From a phage, in sequence record NC_101838.1: DNA of 64,000 bases; one strand, given 5' to 3'. The number at the start of each line of letters is the position of its first letter. The first letter of the stretch is position 1. The position numbers were made by a program, and so were the translations under genes. Of this stretch, positions 11,919 to 28,330 are shown piece by piece. The notes below the pieces were generated by a model that did not search any database, was not told where the DNA came from, and was given only the letters and a program-made list of their open reading frames with translations.

Positions 11919-11934
11919 CATCTAGTTAACATAG

Positions 11935-11961
11935 CCCTGCCCGAAAGGGTGGGGCATTTTT
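11935..11961 (+). terminator. rho-independent terminator
   Basis: Same hairpin as at 1802 (CCCTGCCC-GAAA-GGGTGGGG) followed by T-run. Confidence 0.6.
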
Positions 11962-15134: not shown

Positions 15135-15460
15135 CAGAGATCATCATTTCAACTGCAGGGTATGTATTCCTGACAATCATTGCGCTGGCTATTCTGGTGG
15201 CGGTGTATGGATTTGTTATCCTTCCTATCCTTGAGACATTTAGTTTGTGTCGGTGTTGGAGAAAAGCTTACGGTCCACAACCATGGAAGGACTGGCCCCA
15301 CCTGGTGCGCTTAGCGTTCTCTTATGCTTACGATCACTCCAGTAGTGCATGCATAACCGGATACCACGCCCACAACTGGAGCTGGGAAGGGTTGAGGAAA
15401 TGGAATGTTACAAAGACCATACCTCTGCGCATGTACAAACCTAAAAACAAAGACAACTGA
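15131..15460 (+). CDS. membrane protein (N-terminal transmembrane helix)
   Basis: Hydrophobic N-terminus; GGGGAGG RBS. Confidence 0.5.
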   Translation: MTEIIISTAGYVFLTIIALAILVAVYGFVILPILETFSLCRCWRKAYGPQPWKDWPHLVRLAFSYAYDHSSSACITGYHAHNWSWEGLRKWNVTKTIPLRMYKPKNKDN

Positions 15461-15499
15461 TACTTGAAAATTCCTGGCATATCAAGTATAAGGGGGATT

Positions 15500-15960
15500 T
15501 CTAAAATGGATTTCCTCCTTTTGATATTTCACCGGGCTGGATATTTTAAAATTCTTAGAAAATCAGAAAATGGATCGAAAACTAAAATGGATTTTTCAGA
15601 GTAGGCGCGACAAGCTGAATAACTCATCCTATCGTTTGCACCATATTCCAGGCCACCATTATAGATTTCCCACACATGCTAACCTCCCTCTACTAGAACT
15701 TCCTCCACTTACCCTTGACCTTCTATGGTAACAATCTAACCGCTATCTTGAAGTTGCGGTGCAGCTTTCCAGGTACTCGATCTACTTTTCATTTCAGGGC
15801 TTGGATTTTCTGAAAATTTTTCTCGATAAATTTCTCAGTACTCGATCTGTTTTTCGTTTTCTGAATCGGATTTTCTGGAAATCGTTCCGGCTCTCAACCT
15901 GAAATTTTTGGGGACGAAATCGATTTTTCGTTTTCAGAAATGGATTTTTAAAATTTCTAT
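15500..15960. repeat. iteron-like direct repeat cluster (candidate replication origin or packaging-related site)
   Basis: Repeated AAATGGATTT, GGATTTTCTGRAAAT and ACTCGATCT...TTTTCRTTT units in a non-coding region. Confidence 0.55.
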
Positions 15961-16065
15961 ATGGGAATATTTTAGTGGATACTATTTTATAGTAAATTGT
16001 TACGGAGGGTAATTAGCGTGCTAATTAAATTTATTAAATGCGAGGAGTTCTCATTTAGAATCTTG

Positions 16066-16084
16066 AATGATAATCATTCTCGTT
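16066..16084. promoter_or_regulatory. Fur-box-like site
   Basis: GAATGATAATCATTCTC closely matches Fur consensus GATAATGATAATCATTATC. Confidence 0.45.
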
Positions 16085-16197
16085 TGCAGAATAACGGGCA
16101 GGCCCGGTGATTGTCTCCCGGCCCCTGTTGCCCCGGCTTGTTATTATAGTATCACACAGGACAAAGAAAGCAAGGATTTTTTGCATAAATTTTTAAA

Positions 16198-16216
16198 TGA
16201 TAATGATAACCGTTCT
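16198..16216. promoter_or_regulatory. Fur-box-like site (second copy)
   Basis: GATAATGATAACCGTTCTC; about 130 bp downstream of the first. Confidence 0.4.
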
Positions 16217-16473
16217 CATTTTATGCAGCGCTCATCCCTGGTGGTTGTCTCCCCCGTCACCGGTGCCTGCCGTCCTTTCGATAGGTATATTGTGCCACCT
16301 GTCGGGGCCGCTGTCAACACTTTTCAAAAAATTTTTCTAACCTGATGCGCTAACCGCTGCAACCTGGCGGGGCCAGCCTGGCAGGACCTAACTGACCAGG
16401 TGGGAGAGGGTGAAATCTTGCAAACCTGGTAGGCCCATGCTGTAGGGTAAACAATTGAAGAGGAGGTACAAAA

Positions 16474-16611
16474 ATGAAAGGTAATGCTACTCACCTGGGA
16501 AATGTAGTGATTAATGATACAGAAGCGCGGGAACATAAAGAAGAGTACGAAAAAATGGTGGTTAACCTGGCGGGGGGGCGGCAGGTGGATTCTATCATAA
16601 AAATAATTTAA
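16474..16611 (+). CDS. small hypothetical protein (45 aa, not in ORF track)
   Basis: ATG after GAAGAGGAGG RBS. Confidence 0.3.
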   Translation: MKGNATHLGNVVINDTEAREHKEEYEKMVVNLAGGRQVDSIIKII

Positions 16612-16619
16612 AATAATCG

Positions 16620-16649
16620 TTGACAACAAGGTTAATCATGGTATTATTA
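16620..16649 (+). promoter_or_regulatory. sigma70 promoter
   Basis: TTGACA-N17/18-TATTAT. Confidence 0.55.
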
Positions 16650-16697
16650 CCCTACAAGGTGAACAACACCGCACTAACCAGTAAAGAGGATAAATTT

Positions 16698-16895
16698 ATG
16701 AACGCATACGGGATCAAAGTACGTCGCAACACTCGCCAGGTGGTCACCGATCAAATGGTTTGCCAGGTGGACGTAACCATCAACAACGGGCAAGGCCTTT
16801 ATAAATTCCGTCGCGGTCAGAGCTATACCCGGCAACAGCTTAATCGTTGCGCCCTGACAAAAGGACAGATCAACCACTGGTTTAATAAAAAATAA
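16698..16895 (+). CDS. hypothetical small basic protein
   Basis: ATG after AAGAGGA RBS (track start 16620 lies inside the promoter). Confidence 0.5.
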   Translation: MNAYGIKVRRNTRQVVTDQMVCQVDVTINNGQGLYKFRRGQSYTRQQLNRCALTKGQINHWFNKK

Positions 16896-16898
16896 GTA

Positions 16899-16927
16899 TT
16901 GACATATAGTCCGACACCAAATACACT
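16899..16927 (+). promoter_or_regulatory. sigma70-like promoter
   Basis: TTGACA-N17-TACACT. Confidence 0.5.
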
Positions 16928-16959
16928 AAAAGCACAAAAGACACTAAGAGGATAAAATC

Positions 16960-17358
16960 ATGAAAACCACTACCTTTAATTTTGATAATGCGGACTTTTC
17001 TTTTTCTGATGTCAAGAACTGCCGCCGTGATCGTGGATTTTACAAGGCTTATAATCTGGTGGGCCTGGACGATGACAATAATTTGCACGAAGTAGCTGAG
17101 ATCCGGTATTATGCCGCCGTCAGCGGGAACACTCACTACTGCGTGTTTTGGATTCACGACAACAAGAACAATAAGTACGGTTATACTGGCGGCAAGGCGA
17201 GCGGTCACGGTTACGATAAAGCTAACGCAGCACTTGAGAGCGCATTAAATGCTATGGGGATCACTGCCGACGGCTGGATCTACGAAGAAGAGTTTTTGTC
17301 GGCACTTGCTGACCACCTGGGCTATAAAAAACACATTGTAACATGCGCCCACGAATAA
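16960..17358 (+). CDS. hypothetical protein
   Basis: AAGAGGA RBS. Confidence 0.55.
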   Translation: MKTTTFNFDNADFSFSDVKNCRRDRGFYKAYNLVGLDDDNNLHEVAEIRYYAAVSGNTHYCVFWIHDNKNNKYGYTGGKASGHGYDKANAALESALNAMGITADGWIYEEEFLSALADHLGYKKHIVTCAHE

Positions 17359-17364
17359 AAATCA

Positions 17365-17392
17365 TTGACACGCTGCAAAATTTAAGTAAACT
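17365..17392 (+). promoter_or_regulatory. sigma70-like promoter
   Basis: TTGACA-N16-TAAACT. Confidence 0.5.
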
Positions 17393-17440
17393 AGACACAA
17401 AAGGCGGGAATGTTTCCCGCCAGCACAAAGGAAAAAGATC

Positions 17441-17836
17441 ATGAATAAGAACGTACGCCGCATCATGAACGAACTGGCAAACGATGAAAAAATTATTGAT
17501 ATGCATTTGGTCAACATTTGCCGCCGTTGTGTAACATATAACAACCGCGCCGCAAAAGCGCGTGAGATGAACGCAAAAGGCACCTTAAAGCCCTTTCAGG
17601 TGGTTGTAAAATCTATAACTAGCGCAGCAGGCCAGGCGCAGGACCACAACAACGAGAGCGCTAATATTGATCCGTCTTACGTAATGAAACGGATCCGGAC
17701 TTGCAAGAATAAAGAGCAGGTATATAACGTCATAGATTGGCTGGACTCCCTGGGCGATGTGGTTTACAATAGGTTTTCTGCAGCTATCGAGATCCAGCTT
17801 GACAGATTGGACGGGAAAGTACTAAAAACTTATTGA
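17441..17836 (+). CDS. hypothetical protein
   Basis: AAAGGA RBS. Confidence 0.55.
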   Translation: MNKNVRRIMNELANDEKIIDMHLVNICRRCVTYNNRAAKAREMNAKGTLKPFQVVVKSITSAAGQAQDHNNESANIDPSYVMKRIRTCKNKEQVYNVIDWLDSLGDVVYNRFSAAIEIQLDRLDGKVLKTY

Positions 17837-17837
17837 G

Positions 17838-17883
17838 TTTATTTTTAGATGGCCTTGACACCAGGGCCATCAATAAAGTAAAC
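17838..17883 (+). promoter_or_regulatory. repeated palindrome/promoter element, copy 1
   Basis: TTATTTTTAGATGGCCTTGACACCAGGGCCATCAATAAAGTAAAC; palindrome GATGGCC/GGCCATC flanks a TTGACA box. Confidence 0.5.
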
Positions 17884-17916
17884 TAACCACAGTTGAGCGG
17901 AAAAGGAGGCTTAAAG

Positions 17917-18036
17917 ATGAGCACTACACGCCAGCACACAAAGGTAACCATCATCGTTTGCATCATTGGGTACATCCTGGCGCAAATGTTGATGGGTAGC
18001 GCCAACGGTGTCGCAAAATTTTTCTTAAACTTTTAA
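17917..18036 (+). CDS. small membrane peptide (39 aa, not in ORF track)
   Basis: ATG after AAAGGAGG RBS; hydrophobic core. Confidence 0.3.
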   Translation: MSTTRQHTKVTIIVCIIGYILAQMLMGSANGVAKFFLNF

Positions 18037-18064
18037 TTGACAAGCTAACTTAAATCGATATAAT
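18037..18064 (+). promoter_or_regulatory. sigma70 promoter
   Basis: TTGACA-N16-TATAAT. Confidence 0.6.
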
Positions 18065-18115
18065 AAGCACATAAACGGGAAAACTTCCCAGAACACACAA
18101 AAGGAGAAAAACACC

Positions 18116-18457
18116 ATGACTACTATGACCGCCTCAGAAAAAGCTATGCAGATCGCTGAACTGAAAAAACAGATCGCAGACCTTGAGAATAAGATCGATA
18201 ACTTTGAAATCGACGAGGACAAGTACGACGAAAACTATGATGAATGGTTAGACGAGATCTACGGCGAAATTATGATCGGAAACATTTCTTTTCTTCCGTC
18301 GCGTATCCTCAAGGAGCTAGATCCTATCGCTTACCGCTGCGGATTTAGCGACTACATCGACAGCCTGGATATTGAGGACGATGAAGAATACCAGGAATTA
18401 CAGACAGAGTTAGAAGAAGCAAAAGAAGAGCTTGCGGAGCTGGAAGAAAACGAGTAA
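18116..18457 (+). CDS. highly acidic coiled-coil protein
   Basis: AAAGGAGA RBS; Asp/Glu-rich sequence. Confidence 0.55.
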   Translation: MTTMTASEKAMQIAELKKQIADLENKIDNFEIDEDKYDENYDEWLDEIYGEIMIGNISFLPSRILKELDPIAYRCGFSDYIDSLDIEDDEEYQELQTELEEAKEELAELEENE

Positions 18458-18503
18458 GCTTATTTTTAGATGGCCTTGACACCAGGGCCATCAATAAAGT
18501 AAA
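18458..18503 (+). promoter_or_regulatory. repeated palindrome/promoter element, copy 2
   Basis: Same 46-bp element as 17838..17883. Confidence 0.5.
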
Positions 18504-18546
18504 CTTTATACTGTTAACACTGAACTAATGCATAGGAGTTAAAACC

Positions 18547-18792
18547 ATGGCAGCACTAATCACCAAATATTATGCCCCTACCAACACCAAAAGCGCCCGT
18601 ATCATGGTAAAAGGCTTCGGACGTAAAAAGGTGTACACCTGGGATTATGCCTTAGACATGGAAGACAACTACACCAACGCAATGACCGATTTTATTAATG
18701 AACTAAATAAGCAGATCTTGACAAGTTATAAAGTGACCGATATTGCTTATATAGGTGAAGGCGGGATCTGTTTTGTAGGCATTGTGAAATAG
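18547..18792 (+). CDS. hypothetical protein
   Basis: ATAGGAG RBS. Confidence 0.55.
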   Translation: MAALITKYYAPTNTKSARIMVKGFGRKKVYTWDYALDMEDNYTNAMTDFINELNKQILTSYKVTDIAYIGEGGICFVGIVK

Positions 18793-18840
18793 TTATTTTT
18801 TCGGTGGTCCTGGCTGCAGGGCCATCTATAAAGATAATTT
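18793..18840 (+). promoter_or_regulatory. degenerate variant of the palindrome/promoter element
   Basis: TTTTTTCGGTGGTCCTGGCTGCAGGGCCATCTATAAAGATAA. Confidence 0.35.
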
Positions 18841-18866
18841 ATCAACACCATGAAAGGAGAAAGTAC

Positions 18867-19220
18867 ATGATCAGCGGGGCTAGTTTTATTATTGGCGCTA
18901 TTGCTACGGCTTTAATTGTAAACAAGATCCAATCTAAAAACGAAAAAGATAGCAACGCGCTCACAGAATACCCATTTTGGGTATTCAACGACAACGAAGA
19001 CTACATAATCAAGTACAAAGATGAGAGAGGCGACCAGGTAACACCGCGACCGATCCCAGCTTACAAGATGCAGGAAACACTATACCGCCTAAAGGCCGGA
19101 GGCGCAAAGATCGTAGACTTTTGGGGATATGATTGCAAGGATCAGGAGGTCATAAAACGTCGTATCCGGGCGATTCAGGCAAATATTGAAATTAGTAAAG
19201 GGGAAATTTATGAAAATTAA
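18867..19220 (+). CDS. membrane-anchored hypothetical protein
   Basis: ATG after GAAAGGAGA RBS; hydrophobic N-terminus. Confidence 0.5.
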   Translation: MISGASFIIGAIATALIVNKIQSKNEKDSNALTEYPFWVFNDNEDYIIKYKDERGDQVTPRPIPAYKMQETLYRLKAGGAKIVDFWGYDCKDQEVIKRRIRAIQANIEISKGEIYEN

Positions 19221-19407
19221 TTTCGAAAAAATTGTAAAGCGCCCCCACGATTCCGAAGAGCTGCCGGAACGCCGCCAGCGTAACAATAAACTGAATAAAC
19301 CGAAAAGGTTCGGGAAGATCTGGAGGAATCACTATGATCGCAAATTACCGGGCCTGCTTTTGGAACGTGAACGACAGGCGGAACGATACCGCCACAAAGG
19401 CAAATAA
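19210..19407 (+). CDS. small basic protein
   Basis: ATG after AAAGGGG; Arg/Lys-rich. Confidence 0.4.
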   Translation: MKINFEKIVKRPHDSEELPERRQRNNKLNKPKRFGKIWRNHYDRKLPGLLLERERQAERYRHKGK

Positions 19408-19423
19408 CAACCAACGCCCCGCC

Positions 19424-19452
19424 ATTGTGCGGGGCTTTTTATTTCTATCCTA
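19424..19452 (+). terminator. rho-independent terminator
   Basis: CGCCCCGC-loop-GCGGGGC followed by TTTTT. Confidence 0.65.
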
Positions 19453-19577
19453 CGAATAGCGCCCCTGGTTGGCCCCACAAACGCCACAAAAGCCCCTACC
19501 TATGCAATCCCCTTTCTTAGCCTGAAAACATCACCCAGGACCGTTTTATGGTGTTAAAAATATCTTTTATTTAAAGC

Positions 19578-19606
19578 TTGACACCTTGGAATCGCCTGGA
19601 TATACT
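19578..19606 (+). promoter_or_regulatory. sigma70 promoter
   Basis: TTGACA-N17-TATACT. Confidence 0.55.
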
Positions 19607-19641
19607 AACCACATCAAAGCAAGAAGAAAGGAGTAAACGCC

Positions 19642-19902
19642 ATGCGTAAATTAAAAAATTTTGATAAAGTCGATGTTGTCCTGAATAATTTTTACTACTG
19701 CAATAATAAGGCCGTTTGGTGGCGTGATAGTTCCACCGATAAAGTTAAAGCGCGCTTTCTCCAGGGGCACTGGCAAGGCCGCCCAGTGATTAAGATCCGG
19801 GGGCAATTGGTAGCGTTTAAAAATTGCCGCCGTGTTGATGACGTTGAAGAGATTCTAAACATTTTACGCCACAATAATTTAAAAAATAGTGTTGACAAGT
19901 AA
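19642..19902 (+). CDS. hypothetical protein
   Basis: AAAGGAG RBS. Confidence 0.55.
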   Translation: MRKLKNFDKVDVVLNNFYYCNNKAVWWRDSSTDKVKARFLQGHWQGRPVIKIRGQLVAFKNCRRVDDVEEILNILRHNNLKNSVDK

Positions 19903-19920
19903 GCCTCAATAAGTATACTT
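19893..19920 (+). promoter_or_regulatory. sigma70 promoter
   Basis: TTGACA-N16-TATACT. Confidence 0.55.
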
Positions 19921-19976
19921 AAACACACAGGCGGGAAAACTTCCCGCCACTAACAAAGAAAATAGGAGAAAATATC

Positions 19977-20600
19977 ATGACCACCGTTAACATTACCGCA
20001 GGTTACAATTTATCTTTCGACGTGCTGACCGACGAACAAAAAGAAAAAGCCGTTGAAATGGTCCGCGAAAGAGAAGAACACAGCGGGGATAACTTTTTTG
20101 CAGAAAGTGTAATTGAATACTATAAAGAATATGTTTTTCCAGAGTATGGCCTTGAAGATACCGAAGTACATTGGTCAGGCTTTTGGTGCCAGGGTGACGG
20201 CGCGTCAATCAGTGCTGAAAACGTGGATTTAGAAAAATTTTTGCGTAAAGTAAAGGCCCTGACCAAGTTCCGATCAATTCGTCACTTGTTCGGCACAATG
20301 CACGATGGCGAGTTATCAGCCAGTGTTGAGCGTGATCCATATAGCCGCTATAGTCACGAAAACACTGTAAGCGGATACATTGATACCACCTGGCTAGATC
20401 TGACCGCCAAACAAGAAAACAAAGTGGAAGACCTGGAAGAGCTGATCACCGAGACGGTACGGGAGCTATCCCGCAAGGTTTACGTAGACCTGGAGGAGGC
20501 CTATCTTGAACAGTTTACTACCGAAAACCTGATCGGCCTTATTGAGGCCAATGATTGGCGGTTTGATGTGGATGAATATGGCGAGATGACTTTTTCATAA
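19977..20600 (+). CDS. hypothetical acidic protein
   Basis: ATAGGAGA RBS. Confidence 0.55.
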   Translation: MTTVNITAGYNLSFDVLTDEQKEKAVEMVREREEHSGDNFFAESVIEYYKEYVFPEYGLEDTEVHWSGFWCQGDGASISAENVDLEKFLRKVKALTKFRSIRHLFGTMHDGELSASVERDPYSRYSHENTVSGYIDTTWLDLTAKQENKVEDLEELITETVRELSRKVYVDLEEAYLEQFTTENLIGLIEANDWRFDVDEYGEMTFS

Positions 20601-20689
20601 ATAAAGTGTTGCAATAACCTAAAAACCTGCTATATTAAAACTCAAGGGGGCAAGACGTTTGCCCCACACAAAACAAAGAGGAAAACATT

Positions 20690-21070
20690 ATGAAAAACAC
20701 TACCAAGGCTATTGACACCGTTATGTTTAACCTGGTTACATTCCGTGAAGATATGAAAGATCTTCCACGTGAAACAGTGTGCGATCACATTGAAAACTAT
20801 CGCAAACTAATCAAAGAGTTGCCCCTAAAACGTGACCAGTATGCGGCTAACGCTATGCTCAACGCCATGATCAAAAAGATGATCCAGTGTGATTTAACCC
20901 TGGCCTATGACTATGCGGGTGGTCGTTTTGCAGTATACAATCAGCCCGTGCCTGGTATGGGCACCACCGAAGAATTGCACGCGCTCAATCTAAAACAAGA
21001 CGTATGGGATAACATGCCCCGCGTGGTGGTGTGGGCAGAAAGCGGAAAGATTTACGGCGATAATTTTTAA
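20690..21070 (+). CDS. hypothetical protein
   Basis: AAGAGGA RBS. Confidence 0.55.
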   Translation: MKNTTKAIDTVMFNLVTFREDMKDLPRETVCDHIENYRKLIKELPLKRDQYAANAMLNAMIKKMIQCDLTLAYDYAGGRFAVYNQPVPGMGTTEELHALNLKQDVWDNMPRVVVWAESGKIYGDNF

Positions 21071-21079
21071 TCAGGTAAC

Positions 21080-21103
21080 AGGCGGCAAATATGCCGCCTT
21101 ATT
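21080..21103 (+). terminator. weak intrinsic terminator hairpin
   Basis: GGCGGCA-loop-TGCCGCC followed by TTATTGTT. Confidence 0.35.
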
Positions 21104-21134
21104 GTTAAACAGAACTGCAAAAGAGGTACATAGA

Positions 21135-21506
21135 ATGGAATTTATTATTTTGGCTGTAGTAGTTGCCTTGTTCAACGCCTGGATCGCTGGCAAGATGGGT
21201 AGATCCGCCTTTTTATGGTTTATTATATCTATTTTCCTGGGGGTGGTTGCAACTATTGTACTTGTTATCCTTGCAATTGTTGACAAGGGGAATAATAGAA
21301 AGGGTAAAGTATTTTCAGACCTGTACGACGCTCAAACGTTTGTCAACGCCTATTATAGTGATCTTCCAGTCTCCCTACGCTGCAGCCTGGCACAACAAGT
21401 TTTCGATGAGGCTAAAACCAGAGATCAAGCCCATGAGATATGTTTAACTGAGGCGGATCGCCTATTTGAGAGGAATAGAAAATATGTGGGCCAACCGTTT
21501 AAATAA
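21135..21506 (+). CDS. membrane protein (two predicted transmembrane helices)
   Basis: ATG after AAAGAGG RBS; hydrophobic segments. Confidence 0.5.
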   Translation: MEFIILAVVVALFNAWIAGKMGRSAFLWFIISIFLGVVATIVLVILAIVDKGNNRKGKVFSDLYDAQTFVNAYYSDLPVSLRCSLAQQVFDEAKTRDQAHEICLTEADRLFERNRKYVGQPFK

Positions 21507-21705
21507 TGCCACGTTAATTAATCCCTTTAGTGAAGATTTGAAGCCAGCCGCCTGGCGTGATGGATTCAATAACGAACGCTTTATTTTCAAGCCTGATCTT
21601 GAGGAATTTTATAACAATGGATCGAACAACGACAGAGATAATTTTTCTTGTGGTGTGCGTAGTGATGGTACTCCTGGGGGCCATTGTAAACCACGTCACT
21701 ACTAA
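21484..21705 (+). CDS. hypothetical protein
   Basis: ORF overlapping the end of the previous gene. Confidence 0.35.
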   Translation: MWANRLNNATLINPFSEDLKPAAWRDGFNNERFIFKPDLEEFYNNGSNNDRDNFSCGVRSDGTPGGHCKPRHY

Positions 21706-21725
21706 CAGGGGGAAAGGGGGAGACG

Positions 21726-21845
21726 ATGACACCCAAGGATAAGCCCCGCACCGATAAGGCGCGCCGTGTTATGGTATGGCTTGAGATCATCGCCCTTGAA
21801 ATATTGTTAGGGGTAGGGATGTACTTTATCGCTGTAAGTAACTAA
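21726..21845 (+). CDS. small membrane peptide (39 aa, not in ORF track)
   Basis: ATG after AAGGGGGAG RBS; hydrophobic C-terminal half. Confidence 0.3.
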   Translation: MTPKDKPRTDKARRVMVWLEIIALEILLGVGMYFIAVSN

Positions 21846-21849
21846 GAAC

Positions 21850-21878
21850 GGCCCCCCGATCATGGGGGCCTATCTTTT
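21850..21878 (+). terminator. rho-independent terminator
   Basis: GGCCCCCC-GATCAT-GGGGGCC followed by T-rich run. Confidence 0.6.
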
Positions 21879-21904
21879 AAAAAAAAAAAAAATTCTTCCG
21901 GGGT

Positions 21905-21933
21905 GTTGCAATCCGGTCCGGAATGTGGATAAT
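21905..21933 (+). promoter_or_regulatory. sigma70-like promoter
   Basis: TTGCAA-N17-ATAATA. Confidence 0.45.
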
Positions 21934-21989
21934 AACAATCAACGGGGAGCTAATCCCCACCACCACAAAAACCAGAAAGGAGAAACAAA

Positions 21990-22190
21990 ATGAGCAACAA
22001 TATCCGCGTTATTAACTTCAAAAAAGAAGAAAAAATTGCCGTGCTGATTGACGGTCAAGAAATCTTCAAGGGCGACTATGAAGATCATCAAACGGCGATT
22101 AGTATCACTCGCGTGATTGGTTACCATAATTTTTACCCCCAAGGCGCTGAGGCAGCGGTTAAACGAATCAAAGAGATTGTAGGCCTGTAA
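21990..22190 (+). CDS. hypothetical protein
   Basis: AAAGGAGA RBS. Confidence 0.55.
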   Translation: MSNNIRVINFKKEEKIAVLIDGQEIFKGDYEDHQTAISITRVIGYHNFYPQGAEAAVKRIKEIVGL

Positions 22191-22193
22191 AAT

Positions 22194-22238
22194 TTATTTT
22201 TAGATGGCCTTGACTCCAGGGCCATCAATAAAGTAAAT
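22194..22238 (+). promoter_or_regulatory. repeated palindrome/promoter element, copy 3
   Basis: Same element as 17838 with TTGACT in place of TTGACA. Confidence 0.5.
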
Positions 22239-22284
22239 TTAAACCCTGTTAAAAATACCACGCAGTTAACAAGGAGTGATAGAC

Positions 22285-22584
22285 ATGTTTATCCAGGCTA
22301 ATAATCTTTATTTCTTTGATGGTCAGATCGTAGACGGTGTGGAAGTGGAGATCACCGGGTGCCCTGGCGGTCAGGCTATGACTTTTCGGAATAATGCCTT
22401 TGATGATTCTCATATCGTTATGAGAATGGAAGTTACGAAGCTGGACGACAAGAAAACACTTATTGACTATTCTGTGAAAGATCATCCAGACTACCGCATG
22501 ATCCATGGCGATTTGTGCATTGTTGACCGTGACAAGGTGGGCGGCATTGTGATCGCTATTGTGAACGATGTTTTCTCAAACTAA
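22285..22584 (+). CDS. hypothetical protein
   Basis: ATG after AAGGAG RBS. Confidence 0.5.
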   Translation: MFIQANNLYFFDGQIVDGVEVEITGCPGGQAMTFRNNAFDDSHIVMRMEVTKLDDKKTLIDYSVKDHPDYRMIHGDLCIVDRDKVGGIVIAIVNDVFSN

Positions 22585-22601
22585 TTTCAGCAGGTGATTT
22601 T

Positions 22602-22952
22602 ATGAAAGTCAAACTATATTACCTTAATGAGCTTAACCCCCTTGCCCAGGTCCGCGCCCTAGCTAATACCTTGATTTGTGAGAAATCTGCATATTGTGTT
22701 GAGCTTAACGCCATGCGTGAACGTCTCAAAGGGGGTTACTTTGACATCCATGCTGCAATCAACGGCCTGAATATGGAATTTATACGCTTACGTAACAGCC
22801 GCCGGAATCTGGCAAGAATGGAACAAGATCCGGCCCACCTTCGTAAGCTGGTTATTGAAAATCATCTGATGTTTAATGCCGAGGGTGATTATTACCATTT
22901 TCACCGCAAACGCTGGTACCGTGGCGGCAATACAGGCAAGAATGCAAAATAA
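22602..22952 (+). CDS. hypothetical protein
   Basis: ORF. Confidence 0.5.
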   Translation: MKVKLYYLNELNPLAQVRALANTLICEKSAYCVELNAMRERLKGGYFDIHAAINGLNMEFIRLRNSRRNLARMEQDPAHLRKLVIENHLMFNAEGDYYHFHRKRWYRGGNTGKNAK

Positions 22953-22990
22953 GGCCCCAGGCAGGGCCTGCAGCGATATAATCACATAAA

Positions 22991-23021
22991 GGCTATGCGG
23001 TTGCATGGCCTTTATTATTTT
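22991..23021 (+). terminator. intrinsic terminator
   Basis: GGCTATGC-loop-GCATGGCC followed by TTTATTATTTT. Confidence 0.5.
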
Positions 23022-23072
23022 AGCGTTACAGCGGCCCCAAGGCGCTTAAAAAAAAAATTTTTAAAGAAGTAC

Positions 23073-23101
23073 TTGCATCAAGTCCTACAATATGGATAAT
23101 A
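23073..23101 (+). promoter_or_regulatory. sigma70-like promoter
   Basis: TTGCAT-N17-ATAATA. Confidence 0.45.
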
Positions 23102-23157
23102 GGACGTGTCAGGGGGGCGGCCCCCAATCATTAACCGGATAGATAGGAGTTAAAATC

Positions 23158-23442
23158 ATGACTATTGTCACCGTTGGCGATGTAGTGGAAATGGAAGCAA
23201 AATACTTAAAAGCGGGTATGCATATCCTACGGAATGATCAAGAATTGTTATTAACGATGGTAGACTATAATCCCGGCCAGGATTATCCAAGCATCGACTA
23301 CTTTTTTGAGTATGTTGATGAAGAATTGAAAGAGGATGAGGCTTATCAGGGTGAATTCTGCAATTTCTTTTGCCCTGATGAGGTTGTAAAAGTTATCTAT
23401 CAACCTGGAGTACCTTTCCCGCTGCACGCTATCAATAAATAA
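23158..23442 (+). CDS. hypothetical protein
   Basis: ATAGGAG RBS. Confidence 0.55.
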   Translation: MTIVTVGDVVEMEAKYLKAGMHILRNDQELLLTMVDYNPGQDYPSIDYFFEYVDEELKEDEAYQGEFCNFFCPDEVVKVIYQPGVPFPLHAINK

Positions 23443-23496
23443 ACCTGGTGGGGCCGAAAAGGCCCCAATTATGAAAATAAAGAGAGGTAAATCATC

Positions 23497-23730
23497 ATGA
23501 TGGAACAAATTAAACGCGCTGAGTCTATTAATGGCAATGTGATCTATTTTGTCAGCAAAAACGAAAAAGGCGTACCATATGCGGCGGTAATAGTACAACC
23601 TGACGGCGATTATTGGTTTACTGTATACGGATCTTATTCTTTCGGGCGTCCGGTTCATGATAGAATTTTGAAAGTAGCAAATCCGACCGGGAAAAATATC
23701 ACAGCAGAAAAATTTTTTGAAAATAGTTGA
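23497..23730 (+). CDS. hypothetical protein
   Basis: AAGAGAGG RBS. Confidence 0.5.
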   Translation: MMEQIKRAESINGNVIYFVSKNEKGVPYAAVIVQPDGDYWFTVYGSYSFGRPVHDRILKVANPTGKNITAEKFFENS

Positions 23731-23756
23731 CATGACCATATAAGACTGTAATATAT
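23728..23756 (+). promoter_or_regulatory. sigma70 promoter
   Basis: TTGACA-N16-TAATAT. Confidence 0.55.
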
Positions 23757-23807
23757 AAATCAAAGGGGGGGCAACAAGCCCCACCAACCACAAAGAGGAT
23801 AAAAATC

Positions 23808-23987
23808 ATGGCTATTATTGCAAAGACTGAGATCGTAGGCTTAGATTCTATTCTCCTCGCATATGAGGAAGCTATAGAAATGTATGTGGTTTCCTATGGT
23901 GAGTATATTCGTGAATATAAATCTATTGATCTGGCTTTTGAATGTTATATTCGCCAGGTTAATAAAGCGTACGATGATTATCGTTAA
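23808..23987 (+). CDS. small hypothetical protein (59 aa, not in ORF track)
   Basis: ATG after AAGAGGA RBS. Confidence 0.4.
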   Translation: MAIIAKTEIVGLDSILLAYEEAIEMYVVSYGEYIREYKSIDLAFECYIRQVNKAYDDYR

Positions 23988-24077
23988 AATAGTTTGACAA
24001 CAAACAACCATCTAACAAAGCATAATACATAAGGCGGTGGAATGGTCCGCCACCTGGAACAAGAAGAGGAAAACAAG

Positions 24078-24182
24078 ATGAAACAGAAATTAATTGATGC
24101 GGTGATCCTGGTTATTGCCCTGGGTATTGGCCTGATTGCAACCATGGCTAATATGATCTTGTCTTCCAACGGTATCGGGTGA
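24078..24182 (+). CDS. small membrane peptide (34 aa, not in ORF track)
   Basis: ATG after GAGGAAAA; hydrophobic. Confidence 0.3.
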   Translation: MKQKLIDAVILVIALGIGLIATMANMILSSNGIG

Positions 24183-24191
24183 GGTTGGCAA

Positions 24192-24407
24192 ATGATCACT
24201 AACAAAACAGGCAAAACAGAATTTTTACGCAACTTACAGATCGGTAAGTCTGAGATCTGGTATTGCACTAAAACACCCCGTGACGAAATGAAAGACTTCA
24301 CCGCCACGCTGCAACGGGTAAAGATATCCATCACGCAGAAAAAGGCCTTACTAGTGGTGGAAGGTGAGATCCCCCAAACCGTTGTTATAGTTGAGCGTAC
24401 AGCATAG
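24192..24407 (+). CDS. hypothetical protein
   Basis: ORF. Confidence 0.45.
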   Translation: MITNKTGKTEFLRNLQIGKSEIWYCTKTPRDEMKDFTATLQRVKISITQKKALLVVEGEIPQTVVIVERTA

Positions 24408-24498
24408 TTTAATTTATACAGATACCTTAAAATTAACCAACAAAGCATAAACAGGCGGTTACCGCCGCCTTAAACGTAGCAGAAAGAGGATAGACACA

Positions 24499-24783
24499 AT
24501 GAAAAAGATGATCGCAGTTGTTGCCCTGGTTGTTGGACTTAATGCGCCTGTAATGGCTAAAGAGCTGGCAAAAGAGGTTAATCTAACGGATATTCATGCC
24601 GTCAATCAAATAGGGGTTACTTATCGCTTATGCCTTGCCGCTAAAACTTTTAAGGACGGCACAACAGAGTACTACGGCTTCGAGGGTGTCCGGTGCGGTG
24701 AACTTGCTCGCGACCTTAAAGAAGATCCAGACCTGGAAGATCTGCCCATCACCGTAAATGGTAAAGCTTACGTAAACCGTTAA
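24499..24783 (+). CDS. secreted protein with N-terminal signal peptide
   Basis: AAAGAGGA RBS; N-terminus MKKMIAVVALVVGLNAPVMA. Confidence 0.55.
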   Translation: MKKMIAVVALVVGLNAPVMAKELAKEVNLTDIHAVNQIGVTYRLCLAAKTFKDGTTEYYGFEGVRCGELARDLKEDPDLEDLPITVNGKAYVNR

Positions 24784-24785
24784 CC

Positions 24786-24920
24786 ATGAGAAAGATAATC
24801 ATCACCTTGGGGATTGTGGCGGGATCGCTGGCGCTCTTTCTCCTTATGGTTAGGTATGTGCTGATCGGTATTGTCCTGGTAGTCAGCGATCTGTTGGAAA
24901 CGGTTGGCACCTTGTTTTAA
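24786..24920 (+). CDS. small membrane peptide (44 aa, not in ORF track)
   Basis: ATG 2 nt after upstream stop; hydrophobic. Confidence 0.35.
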   Translation: MRKIIITLGIVAGSLALFLLMVRYVLIGIVLVVSDLLETVGTLF

Positions 24921-24932
24921 AGAGCGGTAAAA

Positions 24933-25124
24933 ATGAATATCGAACAAGTTAGAAAGGTATTGGCGGTACTGCGTTATCATAATCATAGAAAGGTCATAGA
25001 CGATCCTGATTATGTCGATTCAAGCCTGGAAGGGGATACACTACAAGCCATAAGTAACATGCAAGAATTGCTAAAGCGCATGACAGAGAAAAACCGACCG
25101 GACTACATAGGCGAAAAAATATAA
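24933..25124 (+). CDS. hypothetical protein
   Basis: ORF. Confidence 0.45.
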   Translation: MNIEQVRKVLAVLRYHNHRKVIDDPDYVDSSLEGDTLQAISNMQELLKRMTEKNRPDYIGEKI

Positions 25125-25140
25125 TCCTTATAAACTACAA

Positions 25141-25172
25141 AACAGGGCTTGCAATGGTCCTGTTTTTTGTTA
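25141..25172 (+). terminator. rho-independent terminator
   Basis: AACAGGGC-loop-GTCCTGTT followed by TTTTTGTT. Confidence 0.6.
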
Positions 25173-25255
25173 TACTTGTTTCACGGCAGGCACCTGGCGA
25201 CGGGGGGGGGAGACAATCACCGGGTGTGCCTGCTATATAAAAACTATAAAAACCG

Positions 25256-25284
25256 TTGACATCTGCCAGGTGGTGGGGTAGCAT
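25256..25284 (+). promoter_or_regulatory. sigma70-like promoter
   Basis: TTGACA-N17-TAGCAT. Confidence 0.45.
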
Positions 25285-25339
25285 TTATCTCGAAGGGGGC
25301 AAAAGCGCCCACACAACAACTGGAAGAGAGGAAAACGCC

Positions 25340-25612
25340 ATGTTAAGCTGGATTAACCAAGAAGTTGAATCACGTTTTAATGCTATTTGGGATCTCATCG
25401 AAAAAGAGGACGGAACATCAAGCCCTTATCTCAATAATCTTGAATTCCATTTCGTGGAAGCGATGAACGCAGAACATGATCACGAAGGTGGTGCGGATGA
25501 ATTCGCTAAAGGATATGGCTTCAACAATGCCAACGAAATGATCGAGGCGGTTGTACTCCAGGCTGAGGAAGATTATCAATTAAAAACGCTTGAATTCTGC
25601 CGCCGTAAGTAA
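25340..25612 (+). CDS. hypothetical protein
   Basis: ATG after GAGAGGAAAA RBS (track start 25256). Confidence 0.5.
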   Translation: MLSWINQEVESRFNAIWDLIEKEDGTSSPYLNNLEFHFVEAMNAEHDHEGGADEFAKGYGFNNANEMIEAVVLQAEEDYQLKTLEFCRRK

Positions 25613-25674
25613 TAAGATAATGACACGGGCCAAAAGGCCCACTAAACAAAAACCACATAAAGAGGAAAAACATC

Positions 25675-25938
25675 ATGAAACGCCTTGATCAGCTCAAATT
25701 AGTTCAATATATGGCTTATCGTGTTCTTGAAGTCCAGAAAGGTAGCAAAAAAGAGGTTTGCGAGAAAGCTTATAAGATCTTCACTCGCAAAAAAGATGAC
25801 TGGATGCTGCGCCAGACTAAAAAGGCTGACATCTTGGGGTACCTGGAAGAAGAGATCCGCCTTGAAGAGCAAGAAGAGATCCGCCGTAGTGAGGCAGATT
25901 ATCAGGCAGCTTGGGAAAACTGGATGAGCAACAAATAA
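25675..25938 (+). CDS. hypothetical protein
   Basis: AAAGAGGA RBS. Confidence 0.55.
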   Translation: MKRLDQLKLVQYMAYRVLEVQKGSKKEVCEKAYKIFTRKKDDWMLRQTKKADILGYLEEEIRLEEQEEIRRSEADYQAAWENWMSNK

Positions 25939-26003
25939 TACAACAAGTTACGGTCAGGGGGTAATAAAGCCCCTTGATCACATAAAAATTATGCTATCCC
26001 TGG

Positions 26004-26032
26004 TTGACAGGGATCGGCAGTTTTGCTATATT
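26004..26032 (+). promoter_or_regulatory. sigma70 promoter
   Basis: TTGACA-N17-TATATT. Confidence 0.55.
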
Positions 26033-26081
26033 CTTTTTTGAAGGGAAGTTGTAAGAAAATTAACTAAGAGGTAAAAACACC

Positions 26082-26501
26082 ATGAACATTAAATCTAATA
26101 ATCCGGCATATAGCTTTGATAACGCTTTTTGTCACGGTCCGGCGGCGAAAGGATTCGAAATCGATGGTAAACTAATTATTGTCAATGTTGACGGGGAAGA
26201 GGTTGCAGTATATCCGGTGGCAGACGTAAAAAGCCGTTTACAATGCCGCATGGATGTTACCGCCTATCAGCTTGATCCGGTTCGCATAGTTGCCCTGGTC
26301 CTGGAAGAAGAAATTAAAGCCATGCACCATAGCAACAGGTTTATTGGTGACGCTCAGGATAATATGAAGGTGTGCCGCCATAAAGTTAATGAAGTGCTTA
26401 AAGAGTACGGCTATAAAGATCTTATGATCAAACGTGATGAAAAATTCCGCTACCGTAACGACCTGGCAAATCGGATTTTTGAAATATACGAATCATTATA
26501 A
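26082..26501 (+). CDS. hypothetical protein
   Basis: AAGAGG RBS. Confidence 0.55.
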   Translation: MNIKSNNPAYSFDNAFCHGPAAKGFEIDGKLIIVNVDGEEVAVYPVADVKSRLQCRMDVTAYQLDPVRIVALVLEEEIKAMHHSNRFIGDAQDNMKVCRHKVNEVLKEYGYKDLMIKRDEKFRYRNDLANRIFEIYESL

Positions 26502-26519
26502 TTTTTTAACTGAATTATC

Positions 26520-26546
26520 AAGGGGCTTAGCCCCTTTCTTTTTGTC
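26520..26546 (+). terminator. rho-independent terminator closing the plus-strand block
   Basis: AAGGGGC-TTA-GCCCCTT followed by TCTTTTT. Confidence 0.65.
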
Positions 26547-27464
26547 TGCTCTTCCCCCTACCATAAACGGCCCTACCTGGAAAGTGGAATAATTGACGAG
26601 CCATCAATCCCACACACTGTACAAACATACATGTAAAATAGCTATTGCATAACCTTTCATTGTGTGGTAGCGGTGCTATTTTTTACCAGTTTTCCTTCCA
26701 AAATTGCACGTAATGCAGCTATTGCATAAATTTTAACCTGATGCATATCTTCAATATCTTGTCAACAAATAAAAATTCTTATAAGTCATACACTTATACC
26801 CCCACAAAAGCGTTCTCTACGTGAAAAATCGGGCATAACTATAGCCGCCAGATCTCAGAATTTACGTACGCTCGCCATTCTATAGCCTGCTAAGTATTTA
26901 TTCCAACCATAGAATAATGGAATAGTCAATACCTGAATAAAATAATTATTCGTTTAAACTGCATAACATAAATCAGCTCAGGTGTCAACATTTTTCGTAA
27001 ACAGTCTTAAATTGTCACTGTGAGTTATCATAAACAGAGAAATCTTTAGTCGTCTAATGTTTACTGTACGTTACTATACTGACTGGAATCATTAGATGAC
27101 TAATAGAAAGATAAGAAATAATTAACGATACAATTATTTTACCTGTAACAATAAGGCAACTATGCAAACGAATGGCATGGCGCGACGGAGTCGCGACATA
27201 ATATAAAAGCAGTAACCATCACCCCCGTGATAGTTTGTCTGCAAACTATTAATCAGATCATAGTTGCCTTGTATTTAGTTAATCATGACATAACAAGCAA
27301 GGCAACTATAGATCTTCTAATAGTTGCCCTGCTTTTATATTATGTCATGCTAATTATAATCAGTGCGATTATTGTCATGCAAACGAATGGCATGGCTTAT
27401 CATCTCTGTGTAAACAATCTATGCGTGAACAGTGAAACATGAAATAATAACAGTCGTTATTGTG

Positions 27465-27520
27465 TCAAGTATTCCGATTGTGTCACCATTGTGTCTAAAG
27501 TGTCATATTGTGTCAGACAA
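27465..27520. repeat. four closely spaced ATTGTGTCA-type direct repeats
   Basis: ttattgtgtcaag, attgtgtcacc, attgtgtctaa, tattgtgtcagac in tandem. Confidence 0.5.
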
Positions 27521-27969
27521 GTTTTTCTCCTCTTTGTCAAGTGCTGCATGAAAAATTTACAAACTGGTATGGTAGCATTTTTGCGGACCTGTTTACATTC
27601 AGGAGTGTATGTATAATCCTTGTTGTGTGGGCGTTTATACGTCTGGACGGTCAGAAGTCTGCAGGTTAATATCTAATCTATTGGCTGCTAACTATATCCC
27701 ACACAAATGATAAGAAATATAATTGTTATATGCGTAAACTGTAACTCATGTTATCAATCCCTGTATGGATCGCCAGTGGTGCGCATAATGGGTATTATGT
27801 TAAATTGCCCGTAATGATAAAGGTTCTCACAATGATAGGTATTCTCATTCACCCTCACAAAATAGATTGCAAATGTTGTGCCACTGTGTGAACGGCCTCA
27901 CCTATTAATTTGCCTCACTGCCTCGATATTTGAGAATTATTATAAGAATGAGAAGTATTCCCATTCCGT

Positions 27970-28330
27970 CCGCCTGGCAGCACTCCTGTAGGTCCTGCAA
28001 GGACTCTAGCTTTCAGCTAGACCCTTCGGGCCTCCCTGTAGGTCAGGTCAAAATCGGGGTAGAATTGGGCCTATTCAGATATTTCTGGCTGACTCTTCAG
28101 GTCTGTGTGGGAAAAGCCAACCTCTCCGGCGGGGCAGGGGGATATCTGCGGGAAAATTGCAGGTCAATTAAAAAATTTACGTGGTATATGAAGCGCTCTT
28201 CAGGTAAGGCATGTATTATGGGATGAAACCCTCTTCAGGCAATGATATTTGTGGGTGTGATATTTGCTGGAAAGCCAGATATGACGGGACTCCCGGCGGG
28301 GCAGGGGTGGTACAGACAGGGAAAATATGA
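27970..28330. repeat. degenerate repeat cluster in non-coding DNA
   Basis: Recurring CCTGTAGGTC (x2), CCGGCGGGGCAGGGG (x2) and CTCTTCAGG units. Confidence 0.45.

Follow-up and report, generated by a model that had tools for sequence, protein, structure and literature searches.

How does a phage transcribe a long run of very small genes, and how are such genes gained and lost? This question is raised by positions 16,620 to 26,546 of a 64,000-nucleotide (nt) stretch of phage DNA (sequence record NC_101838.1; hereafter, the window), where 29 plus-strand genes (G0-G28; 16474-26501), with products of 34-207 amino acids (aa), form an array with a coding density of 78%. The array combines ORFans, host-type promoters that are under selection, six terminators, and repeated cassettes that coincide with recombination junctions. 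We consider it likely that this is a hyperplastic, probably early, accessory region of ORFans, in which host-type promoters are accompanied by portable cassettes that act as recombination linkers. Early expression by the host RNA polymerase from the predicted promoters is plausible.

By sequence comparison, the source genome is a Vequintavirus, that is, an rV5-like coliphage. Overall identity to published Vequintavirus genomes is 94-97%; the 9.9-kb array matches many of them over its full length at 93-96% identity, and, for positions 1-25000 of the window, the identity to phages CarlMeissner and nimi reaches 97.7%. Plus-strand genes, including those for the DNA polymerase and primase-helicase, occupy 1-26.5 kb, the genes at 28.8-64 kb are on the minus strand, and the GC skew switches sign at ~28-30 kb. 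The counterpart of the array in rV5 lies at ~115.8-105.9 kb (genes ~164-197), at the distal end of what the rV5 authors described as a long unit, '10-1-238-164'; they counted 88 mostly small open reading frames (ORFs) at 92-121 kb, with an adjoining ORF-free stretch (Kropinski 2013, PMC3606486).

Promoters and terminators of the gene array

Promoters were scored by the number of matches to TTGACA plus TATAAT out of 12, and sites with at least 10 matches were classed as strong. There are 12 strong sites on the plus strand of the array and none on the minus strand, compared with 1.88±1.54 (maximum, 8) in 300 dinucleotide shuffles, so that the excess is strand-specific and far above chance. Both sites that an initial annotation of this DNA had quoted as examples, P5 and P7, read exactly as quoted. 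The hexamers belong to the coding strand and are mostly intergenic, although a few overlap gene ends. When 14 of the promoters were compared across ten relatives, identity to the window was 98.0% in the -35 boxes, 96.3% in the -10 boxes and 90.3% in the spacers; in the same relatives, it was 92.0% in other intergenic DNA and 89.8% at codon position 3. Conservation of the promoter hexamers thus matches that of codon positions 2 and 1, whereas the spacers and other intergenic DNA drift like position 3. The 22 nt upstream of the promoters are 77% A+T versus a background of 57%. Together, the hexamer conservation, the strand-specific excess and the A+T-rich upstream tract indicate that these promoters are real as selected motifs. 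Nine of the 12 strong promoters, along with four terminators in this region, are already listed in Table S4 of the rV5 paper (PMC3606486). The promoters outside the D1 element (see below) are as follows (hexamers, spacer length in nt, matches out of 12).

P1, 16620-16647, plus: TTGACA-16-TATTAT, 11/12, with TG; -35 invariant in 10 relatives; roughly rV5 P195A
P2, 16899-16927, plus: TTGACA-17-TACACT, 10/12; rV5 P195
P3, 17365-17392, plus: TTGACA-16-TAAACT, 10/12; rV5 P194
P5, 18037-18064, plus: TTGACA-16-TATAAT, 12/12; rV5 P192
P7, 19578-19606, plus: TTGACA-17-TATACT, 11/12; rV5 P186
P8, 19892-19919, plus: TTGACA-16-TATACT, 11/12; -35 overlaps the end of G9; rV5 P185
P9, 20609-20636, plus: TTGCAA-16-TATATT, 9/12, with TG; hexamers invariant in 10 relatives
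P10, 21906-21933, plus: TTGCAA-16-GATAAT, 9/12; hexamers invariant
P12, 23073-23100, plus: weak, TTGCAT-16-GATAAT, 8/12
P13, 23727-23754, plus: TTGACA-16-TAATAT, 10/12; rV5 P174
P14, 23994-24023, plus: degenerate, TTGACA-18-AAGCAT, 9/12; cassette hot spot
P15, 25149-25176, plus: promoter-like, TTGCAA-16-TATACT, 9/12, with TG; -35 in the loop of T5
P16, 25256-25284, plus: TTGACA-17-TAGCAT, 10/12; rV5 P168
P17, 25590-25618, plus: weak, TTGAAT-17-TAAGAT, 8/12
P18, 26004-26032, plus: TTGACA-17-TATATT, 11/12, with TG; rV5 P164

The initial annotation had assigned a consensus promoter to most genes. This proved too generous: a strong site precedes only 11 of the 28 genes G1-G28, and the count rises to 14 with sites of at least 9/12 and to ~17 when 8/12 sites are included. 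The promoterless genes are translationally coupled or lie within short operons. The density of strong sites is 1.19 per kb in the array versus 0.67 and 0.74 on the other coding strands of the window, a ~1.6-fold difference. Just upstream of P7, a 234-nt C-rich spacer without an ORF (19408-19641) separates this promoter from terminator T1, and most of the 10 relatives carry a small indel just 5' of, or within, the P7 -35 box (19565-19600).

The genes themselves were called from start codons, Shine-Dalgarno (SD) sequences, the annotations of relatives and PHROG matches. All 29 start with ATG, and 27 have an SD of the AGAGGA, AAGGAG or GAGGT type, in agreement with the earlier description of about 30 small genes, most with strong ribosome-binding sites; all 29 are on one strand. 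The predictions made for individual products also stand: G5 is an acidic helical protein (pI 4.1, net charge -27, 32% D+E), G23 has a hydrophobic, signal-like N-terminal segment, and four genes (G4, G14, G21, G24) encode one-helix membrane peptides of 34-44 aa. The start of G21 was moved from 24042 to 24078 because the PHROG profile and the homologues span only residues 13-46 of the longer ORF.

G0, 16474-16611, plus: 45 aa; AGGAGG SD; phrog_21957
G1, 16698-16895, plus: 65 aa, basic; phrog_7119
G2, 16960-17358, plus: 132 aa; phrog_7028; no match in Pfam or PDB
G3, 17441-17836, plus: 131 aa; phrog_13245
G4, 17917-18036, plus: 39-aa membrane peptide, hydropathy 2.08; phrog_16391; missing in ECP26 and ime
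G5, 18116-18457, plus: 113 aa, acidic, helical; phrog_9294; missing in ECP26 and ime
G6, 18547-18792, plus: 81 aa; phrog_3199
G7, 18867-19220, plus: 117 aa; membrane helix at the N-terminus
G8, 19210-19407, plus: 65 aa; T7 gene 1.1 family; overlaps the end of G7
G9, 19642-19902, plus: 86 aa, basic; phrog_11241
G10, 19977-20600, plus: 207 aa, acidic, pI 4.4; phrog_5162
G11, 20690-21070, plus: 126 aa; phrog_7352
G12, 21135-21506, plus: 123 aa; membrane helices at the N-terminus
G13, 21484-21705, plus: 73 aa; overlaps G12; phrog_12060
G14, 21726-21845, plus: 39-aa membrane peptide
G15, 21990-22190, plus: 66 aa; phrog_12347
G16, 22285-22584, plus: 99 aa; phrog_7366
G17, 22602-22952, plus: 116 aa; missing in SYGMH1 and V18
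G18, 23158-23442, plus: 94 aa, acidic
G19, 23497-23730, plus: 77 aa; phrog_9227
G20, 23808-23987, plus: 59 aa; 93% nt identity to Justusliebigvirus alia gp110
G21, 24078-24182, plus: 34-aa membrane peptide; revised start
G22, 24192-24407, plus: 71 aa; phrog_5988
G23, 24499-24783, plus: 94 aa; signal-peptide-like N-terminus
G24, 24786-24920, plus: 44-aa membrane peptide; no SD, translationally coupled; missing in Murica and JLBYU08
G25, 24933-25124, plus: 63 aa; phrog_9599
G26, 25340-25612, plus: 90 aa, acidic
G27, 25675-25938, plus: 87 aa; phrog_11701
G28, 26082-26501, plus: 139 aa; missing in SYGMH1 and APCEc02; Phapecoctavirus homologue

Only six hairpins in the array are followed by a T-run on the plus strand.

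T1, 19416-19444, plus: intrinsic terminator, GCCCCGC...GCGGGGC then TTTTTATTT
T2, 21080-21106, plus: intrinsic terminator; rV5 t184
T3, 21850-21878, plus: intrinsic terminator; rV5 t181
T4, 22986-23021, plus: intrinsic terminator; rV5 t177
T5, 25139-25171, plus: intrinsic terminator; the loop holds the P15 -35 box
T6, 26520-26544, plus: intrinsic terminator that closes the array; rV5 t164

The claim that many of the genes are followed by a terminator was thus overstated, as at least ten other GC hairpins lack a plus-strand T-run. A terminator stands before or around a promoter only in the pairs T3/P10, T4/P12 and T5/P15. The impression of cassette-like units was right; the unit, however, is not promoter-ORF-terminator, and its hairpin lies in the leader.

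Leader hairpins, the D1 palindrome and a related module

A scan for terminators yielded 30 terminator-like sites versus 11.6±3.2 expected, 17 of them on the minus strand. At least ten of the GC hairpins that are not terminators start 9-13 nt past a -10 box, and the scan lists them as minus-strand 'terminators'. The first base of the stem is mostly at position 11, counting from the base after the -10 hexamer, and the plus-strand sequence 3' of the hairpin is C/A-rich and leads into the SD. From this position and the C/A-rich downstream sequence, the regular unit can be read as promoter, leader hairpin, CA-rich leader, SD and ORF. The case for leader hairpins rests on positional enrichment and on z-scores against shuffled sequences. 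A GC hairpin at positions 10-13 after the -10 box is present in 33 of the 117 unique promoters with at least 10/12 matches (window and relatives) versus 2.8% of random 40-mers. The median z of the predicted leader structure is -1.9 in the array versus ~0 for promoters elsewhere in the window, and structured leaders make up 42% in the array versus 9% and 20% in the other two parts of the window.

P3 leader hairpin, 17403-17421, plus: GGCGGGAATGTTTCCCGCC; 11 nt past -10; -14.6 kcal/mol, z -4.1; no plus-strand T-run
P5 leader hairpin, 18077-18089, plus: weak; GGGAAAACTTCCC
P8 leader hairpin, 19930-19948, plus: GGCGGGAAAACTTCCCGCC; 11 nt past -10; -14.6 kcal/mol, z -5.2
P9 leader hairpin, 20647-20665, plus: GGGGCAAGACGTTTGCCCC; 11 nt past -10; z -3.0
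P10 leader hairpin, 21944-21958, plus: GGGGAGCTAATCCCC; 11 nt past -10
G18-leader short GC inverted repeat, 23113-23125, plus: GGGGGCGGCCCCC; 13 nt past the P12 -10
G19-leader hairpin, 23450-23466, plus: GGGGCCGAAAAGGCCCC; no recognisable promoter, no T-run
P13 leader hairpin, 23768-23782, plus: GGGGCAACAAGCCCC
G21-leader hairpin after P14, 24033-24051, plus: GGCGGTGGAATGGTCCGCC
G23-leader hairpin, 24453-24470, plus: no plus-strand T-run
G26-leader imperfect GC inverted repeat, 25295-25310, plus: 11 nt past the P16 -10
P17 leader hairpin, 25627-25640, plus: GGGCCAAAAGGCCC

Two of these elements fold no better than shuffled sequence. The repeat at 23113-23125 has a z of -0.13, with 90 of 200 shuffles folding as well or better, and is doubtful as a leader hairpin; the one at 25295-25310 has a z of -0.77, with 51 of 200 shuffles folding as well or better.

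A second type of element, which we denote D1, is a 49-nt palindrome present in four copies, all of which sit directly on the stop codon that ends the preceding gene. Its fold is an extended hairpin with TTGACA in the loop and TAAACT 18 nt on, in the 3' arm (-20 to -25 kcal/mol, z -5 to -8).

D1 copy 1, 17836-17884, plus: -24.7 kcal/mol, z -8.1; holds P4 (17855-17884, TTGACA-18-TAAACT)
D1 copy 2, 18457-18505, plus: holds P6 (18476-18505, TTGACA-18-TAAACT)
D1 copy 3, 18791-18839, plus: degenerate; -35 lost (CTGGCT); hairpin kept, -22 kcal/mol
D1 copy 4, 22191-22239, plus: holds P11 (22210-22239, TTGACT-18-TAAATT, 9/12)

Within the window, D1 is confined to the array, and, across 120 records, it is confined to Vequintavirus, with ~3 places per genome. 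The stem of copy 3 is held by two G.U pairs that are possible only in plus-strand RNA, and other D1 variants have an altered loop or new G.U pairs. In the annotation of phage Murica, two D1 copies, copy 3 included, are labelled as terminators. The D1 promoters are missing from the rV5 table because the search behind it took spacers of 15-17 nt only.

The leader-hairpin module extends to Stephanstirmvirinae. The equivalent arrays of the Phapecoctavirus Schickermooser and the Justusliebigvirus alia have intergenic gaps of 80-90 nt, many of which carry one stereotyped unit that consists of TTGACA-N16-TAAnnT, GTATCACRTAG, GGCGG(C/G)AA...CCGCC, a CA-rich leader, SD and ATG. A strict hairpin test was passed by 12 of 19 promoters in Schickermooser and 10 of 21 in alia, with a median leader z of -3.8. 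A single 65-nt copy of the module matches 738 places in 155 phage records, with at most 10 places per genome among the matches listed, most of which carry no annotated feature. The paralogous stems vary (GGCGGC/GCCGCC, GGCGGG/CCCGCC, GGGGC/GCCCC, and others), with position and pairing kept, and the G.U pairs again favour the sense RNA. We found no prior description of either the leader-hairpin module or D1 in a literature search that did not extend to the PVP-SE1 and phi92 genome papers.

Gene turnover and the competing explanations

For the analysis of gene turnover, the array was aligned to ten relatives; the partial genome of O157 typing phage 4 (L006), which is probably misassembled, was not used for the breakpoints. 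Ten larger structural differences were detected, all of which add or remove whole genes; their boundaries fall in regulatory DNA between genes, at the ends of genes or, once, at a start codon. The clearest event involves D1: phages ECP26 and ime lack 17885-18454 (G4 and G5), the flanks overlap by exactly one D1 copy, and the identity of ime to the window steps from 99.8% to 92.2% exactly at D1. In SYGMH1, a 1.4-kb replacement starts at 23733, directly past the -35 box of P13, and, in naswa and APCEc02, a replacement starts at 24004, 4 nt past the TTGACA of P14 at 23994. An insertion of 310 nt lies between copies of a 13-nt repeat that runs from just upstream of the start codon into the first codons (AAACACCATGAAA). 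Phages naswa and APCEc02 also share a 283-nt cassette insertion just 3' of the P17 leader hairpin, where a 14-nt repeat in the CA-rich leader and SD flanks it. In addition, naswa has three extra mini-genes at the hot spot near 24 kb, and each of these comes with TTGACA-N16 and a -10 box, GTATTTCGTAG, a GC hairpin and SD; these mini-cassettes are ~90% identical to Phapecoctavirus and Justusliebigvirus cassettes. Other genes that the array has in common with these two genera show 71-83% identity and occur in a different order.

We propose that the array is organised in ~14-17 short transcription units, each of which would start from a host sigma70-type promoter, and that the six intrinsic terminators would split it into blocks. 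The expression signals come as three recurrent types of portable cassettes: (i) a promoter, a GC hairpin 10-13 nt past the -10 box (~+4 to +6), an unstructured C/A-rich leader, an AGAGGA/AAGGAG SD and ATG; (ii) the D1 palindrome, which adjoins the stop codon of the preceding gene and holds a -35 box (loop) and a -10 box (3' arm); (iii) a TTGCAA-type promoter preceded by a terminator and an A/T tract. The host RNA polymerase would fire the array promoters soon after DNA entry. The leader hairpins would work as RNA: close to the 5' end of each short mRNA, they would stabilise or insulate it and, possibly, they would also be 3' barriers for read-through RNA of the upstream gene. Because the same short cassettes recur between unrelated ORFs, they may act as linkers for homologous recombination, by which whole genes would be deleted, inserted and exchanged among Vequintavirus strains and with Phapecoctavirus and Justusliebigvirus.

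More tentatively, the promoter, fixed-distance leader hairpin, CA-rich leader and SD, together with D1, might represent an undescribed family of portable cassettes that is spread across Vequintavirinae and Stephanstirmvirinae. Through the RNA element, the transcript of every incoming ORFan would be standardised, insulated and stabilised. Compensatory changes and G.U pairs in the sense strand would preserve the element, which would also provide the homology that moves ORFans between genera. An RNA-binding factor, of phage or host origin, or a nuclease may read the hairpin and thus set the fate of the early mRNA.

Several observations weigh against this explanation. Only about half of the genes have a promoter of their own. 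The rV5 authors saw sigma70-like promoters across the genome and doubted that the polymerase is modified (PMC3606486), so the promoters alone do not prove early expression. No Vequintavirus transcription starts, RNA 3' ends or expression times, and likewise no Stephanstirmvirinae transcriptome, were found in the literature searched. A start ~7 nt past the -10 box would leave ~4-6 unpaired nt before the hairpin, perhaps too many, by the rule for stabilisers of the ompA type, for full protection of the 5' end. RNAalifold produced no usable consensus from a MAFFT alignment of 35 leaders, and hence no covariation statistics, because the stems were out of register. Minus-strand T-rich runs follow the same hairpins, so that antisense termination is conceivable. 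Finally, an exact repeat-to-repeat event was seen only once (D1 to D1), and intergenic breakpoints are to be expected anyway because selection removes disrupted genes.

If the GC hairpins were transcription terminators, each small gene would be a closed promoter-ORF-terminator unit. The excess in the terminator scan (30 sites versus 11.6±3.2), the six canonical plus-strand sites, four of which were called by ARNold for rV5, and the labelling of two D1 copies as terminators in Murica all fit this reading; however, the minus strand accounts for 17 of these 30, and the hairpins at 17403, 18077, 19930, 20647, 21944, 23768, 24453 and 25627 lie after a -10 box or in a leader and are followed on the plus strand by A/C-rich sequence, with no T-run. 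Moreover, they keep a fixed distance of 10-13 nt from the -10 box, a spacing that links them to the promoter of the next gene rather than to the gene before; overall, we regard general termination as improbable. It also appears quite unlikely that the leader hairpins and D1 are not RNA structures at all but DNA operators for a dimeric phage repressor, involved in early shut-off, or recombinase sites. The elements are indeed palindromic and occupy classic operator positions, over the -35 box (D1) or at ~+4 to +25, and a stem-loop-binding recombination protein was speculated upon by the authors who described the promoter-early stem-loop (PeSL) cassettes in the hyperplastic regions of T4-type phages (Arbiol 2010, PMC2839356; Comeau 2014, PMC4122927). 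Yet, the hairpin sequences diverge widely between cassettes, with pairing and position constant; the G.T in D1 copy 3, the GATGGTC variant and GGGCGGC...GCCGCTC pair only as plus-strand G.U, which breaks the DNA palindrome; and D1 copy 3 has kept the hairpin without a promoter.

Very improbable, in our estimate, is the notion that the hairpins mainly terminate antisense transcription and so shield the array from the converging unit that runs from 64000 to 28800. Minus-strand T-rich tails (TTTTGTGT, TGTGTGTT, TTTATGTG) are present, many of these sites pass the terminator scan, and the arms of the window converge at 26.5-28.8 kb, but, for that purpose, one or two terminators where the arms meet would be enough. 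The fixed -10 spacing and the co-occurrence with promoters would be left unexplained, the G.U pairs favour plus-strand RNA, and the Stephanstirmvirinae arrays are full of the same module. Another alternative concerns timing: the array might not be specifically early, with promoters active throughout infection, or with expression by read-through from the upstream replication module and the promoter-like sites weak or redundant. The single long unit proposed by the rV5 authors (genes 10-1-238-164), together with the genome-wide sigma70-like promoters, the promoter density just ~1.6 times that of the neighbouring arms, and the G12-G14 block, for which there is no promoter between T2 and G12, speak for this possibility. 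We nevertheless consider it unlikely: the promoter hexamers are under purifying selection, the inserted cassettes carry their own promoters, and the six terminators interrupt the array, so that read-through alone could not serve the distal genes evenly. None of these alternatives fits the fixed -10 spacing and the sense-strand G.U pairs as well as does an array of host-type promoters with RNA leader cassettes.

Known systems, gene products and flanking DNA

The closest analogy to the proposed organisation is found in the PeSL cassettes. In both cases, a repeated intergenic cassette consists of an A/T-rich tract, a near-consensus sigma70 promoter, a GC stem-loop, SD and a start codon; the cassettes are concentrated beside small ORFans in a variable region; and indels and replacements in relatives end in cassettes, with deletion between flanking copies and crossovers among the -10 box, SD and ATG. 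In contrast to PeSL, the phages here are Vequintavirinae and Stephanstirmvirinae rather than Tevenvirinae, and there is no sequence similarity to the T4-type elements, as judged by the published consensus descriptions. The PeSL stem-loop is located upstream of the promoter and terminates transcription, whereas here it is downstream of the -10 box and has no U-tract, and the D1 hairpin encloses the -35 box. Given that the stem-loop is not an upstream terminator and the genomes are not T4-type, we regard the array as working like PeSL but not as a member of that class.

At the same locus in rV5, the published predictions include P164, P168, P174, P185, P186, P192, P194, P195 and, roughly, P195A, as well as t164, t177, t181 and t184 (PMC3606486). 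That list gives sites only, without the D1 promoters, T1, T5, the leader hairpins or the repeated cassettes, and the paper does not tie promoters and terminators to gene gain and loss. The array resembles T7 class I and T4 early regions in its strong sigma70 promoters and many small non-essential genes, and shares the PF08200 family with T7; unlike T7, which has three clustered promoters and RNase III sites, it has a promoter per one or two genes. Stem-loop stabilisers at mRNA 5' termini, of the type in the ompA 5' untranslated region, were reportedly described by Emory, Bouvet and Belasco in 1992. The leaders of the array are similar in having a stable hairpin near the transcript 5' end (as predicted from promoter geometry), an unstructured leader and SD, and differ in the ~4-6 unpaired nt before the hairpin. 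As in other phage accessory regions, which are variable and often anti-defence (bioRxiv 10.1101/2023.04.06.535777), small genes turn over fast in near-identical genomes, although no gene of the array has a demonstrated or predicted anti-defence function. In the BASEL data, Vequintavirinae are unusually sensitive to restriction-modification systems.

Thus, the promoter list, multi-promoter early regions and cassette shuffling are already known, and no new principle is involved: this is an ordinary type of phage region with a modestly new regulatory-cassette architecture. The rV5-like phages, which are candidates for therapy, are among the E. coli phages isolated most often, and tiny ORFans of unknown function make up about one third of their genes. 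If the proposed explanation is correct, it provides concrete, testable transcription units for 29 such genes, recasts GC hairpins as leader elements instead of terminators, and suggests that evolution in the PeSL style, with regulatory cassettes as recombination linkers, is not limited to T4-type phages. The promoter-hairpin-leader module could also be a compact, naturally insulated expression part.

All 29 proteins match PHROG families, the function of every one of which is unknown. Among the 29, only G8 exceeds a Pfam gathering cut-off, with PF08200, the T7 gene 1.1 family (42.1 bits versus a cut-off of 21; E 1.2e-10), and there are only a few sub-threshold matches in the other 28. T7 gene 1.1 is a class I early gene, so membership of G8 in this family may be taken as a hint, if only that, of early timing. 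No NCBIfam match was obtained for the ten largest proteins, and no match in a PDB sequence search with G2, G3, G10 and G28. The largest protein, G10, has conserved residues G58, GF..QGDGA (68-76), R119 and H127 and a confident AlphaFold (AF2) model (pLDDT 87), for which no structural neighbour was found in the PDB; homologues of G10 are also present on ~360-kb contigs. The GenBank labels 'YeeU-like antitoxin', 'acetyltransferase', 'DNA translocase FtsK', 'Rel homology' and 'holin' were considered as well, and no support for them was found. With no functional assignment for any of the 29 proteins, 'host takeover' and 'anti-defence' remain guesses. A search for structured RNAs gave no Rfam match at gathering score (one sub-threshold chance match, E<1), and no tRNA genes and no tandem arrays of note were found.

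On the 5' side, the array is preceded by ~1 kb without convincing genes (15460-16470), which includes T-rich direct repeats of ~65 nt each (15763-15948) and differs among relatives; SYGMH1, for example, has a 756-nt insertion at 15440-15539 with a Clp-protease-like gene. Further upstream, one and the same 22-nt terminator hairpin, GCCCTGCCCGAAAGGGTGGGGC, is present at two places separated by 10 kb (1800-1826 and 11934-11960), corresponding to rV5 t232 and t213. The T4-late-like motif TGGTAAAATA, which is the motif reported for rV5, is enriched: with at most one mismatch, the window contains 17 sites versus 6.7±2.8 expected, most of which are in the 28.8-64 kb arm, on its coding strand. As a clue to timing, this motif was uninformative, with only one copy inside the array. 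More than 20 GenBank records of 'Campylobacter phage' (host Campylobacter jejuni; e.g. MG065659.1, MG065655.1) match the array at 93-94%; these records look mislabelled or contaminated.

Beyond G28, the ORF-poor region at 26550-28850, where the transcription arms converge, has the lowest GC content in the window (0.379) and is the counterpart of the rV5 'non-coding' box. It contains five ATTGTGTCA-type repeats at a spacing of ~10-11 nt (27458-27516) and the recurring motifs CAAGGCAACTAT / ATAGTTGCC and CAAACGAATGGCATGGC (27160-27400), and may be an origin and/or the site of the genome termini. In the record of the Phapecoctavirus Schickermooser, an identical 329-bp direct terminal repeat is present at both ends (L012, 12371-12699; L014, 1-329). 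The end of this genome is ~0.9 kb beyond the G28 homologue, so that its small-gene array abuts the genome terminus.

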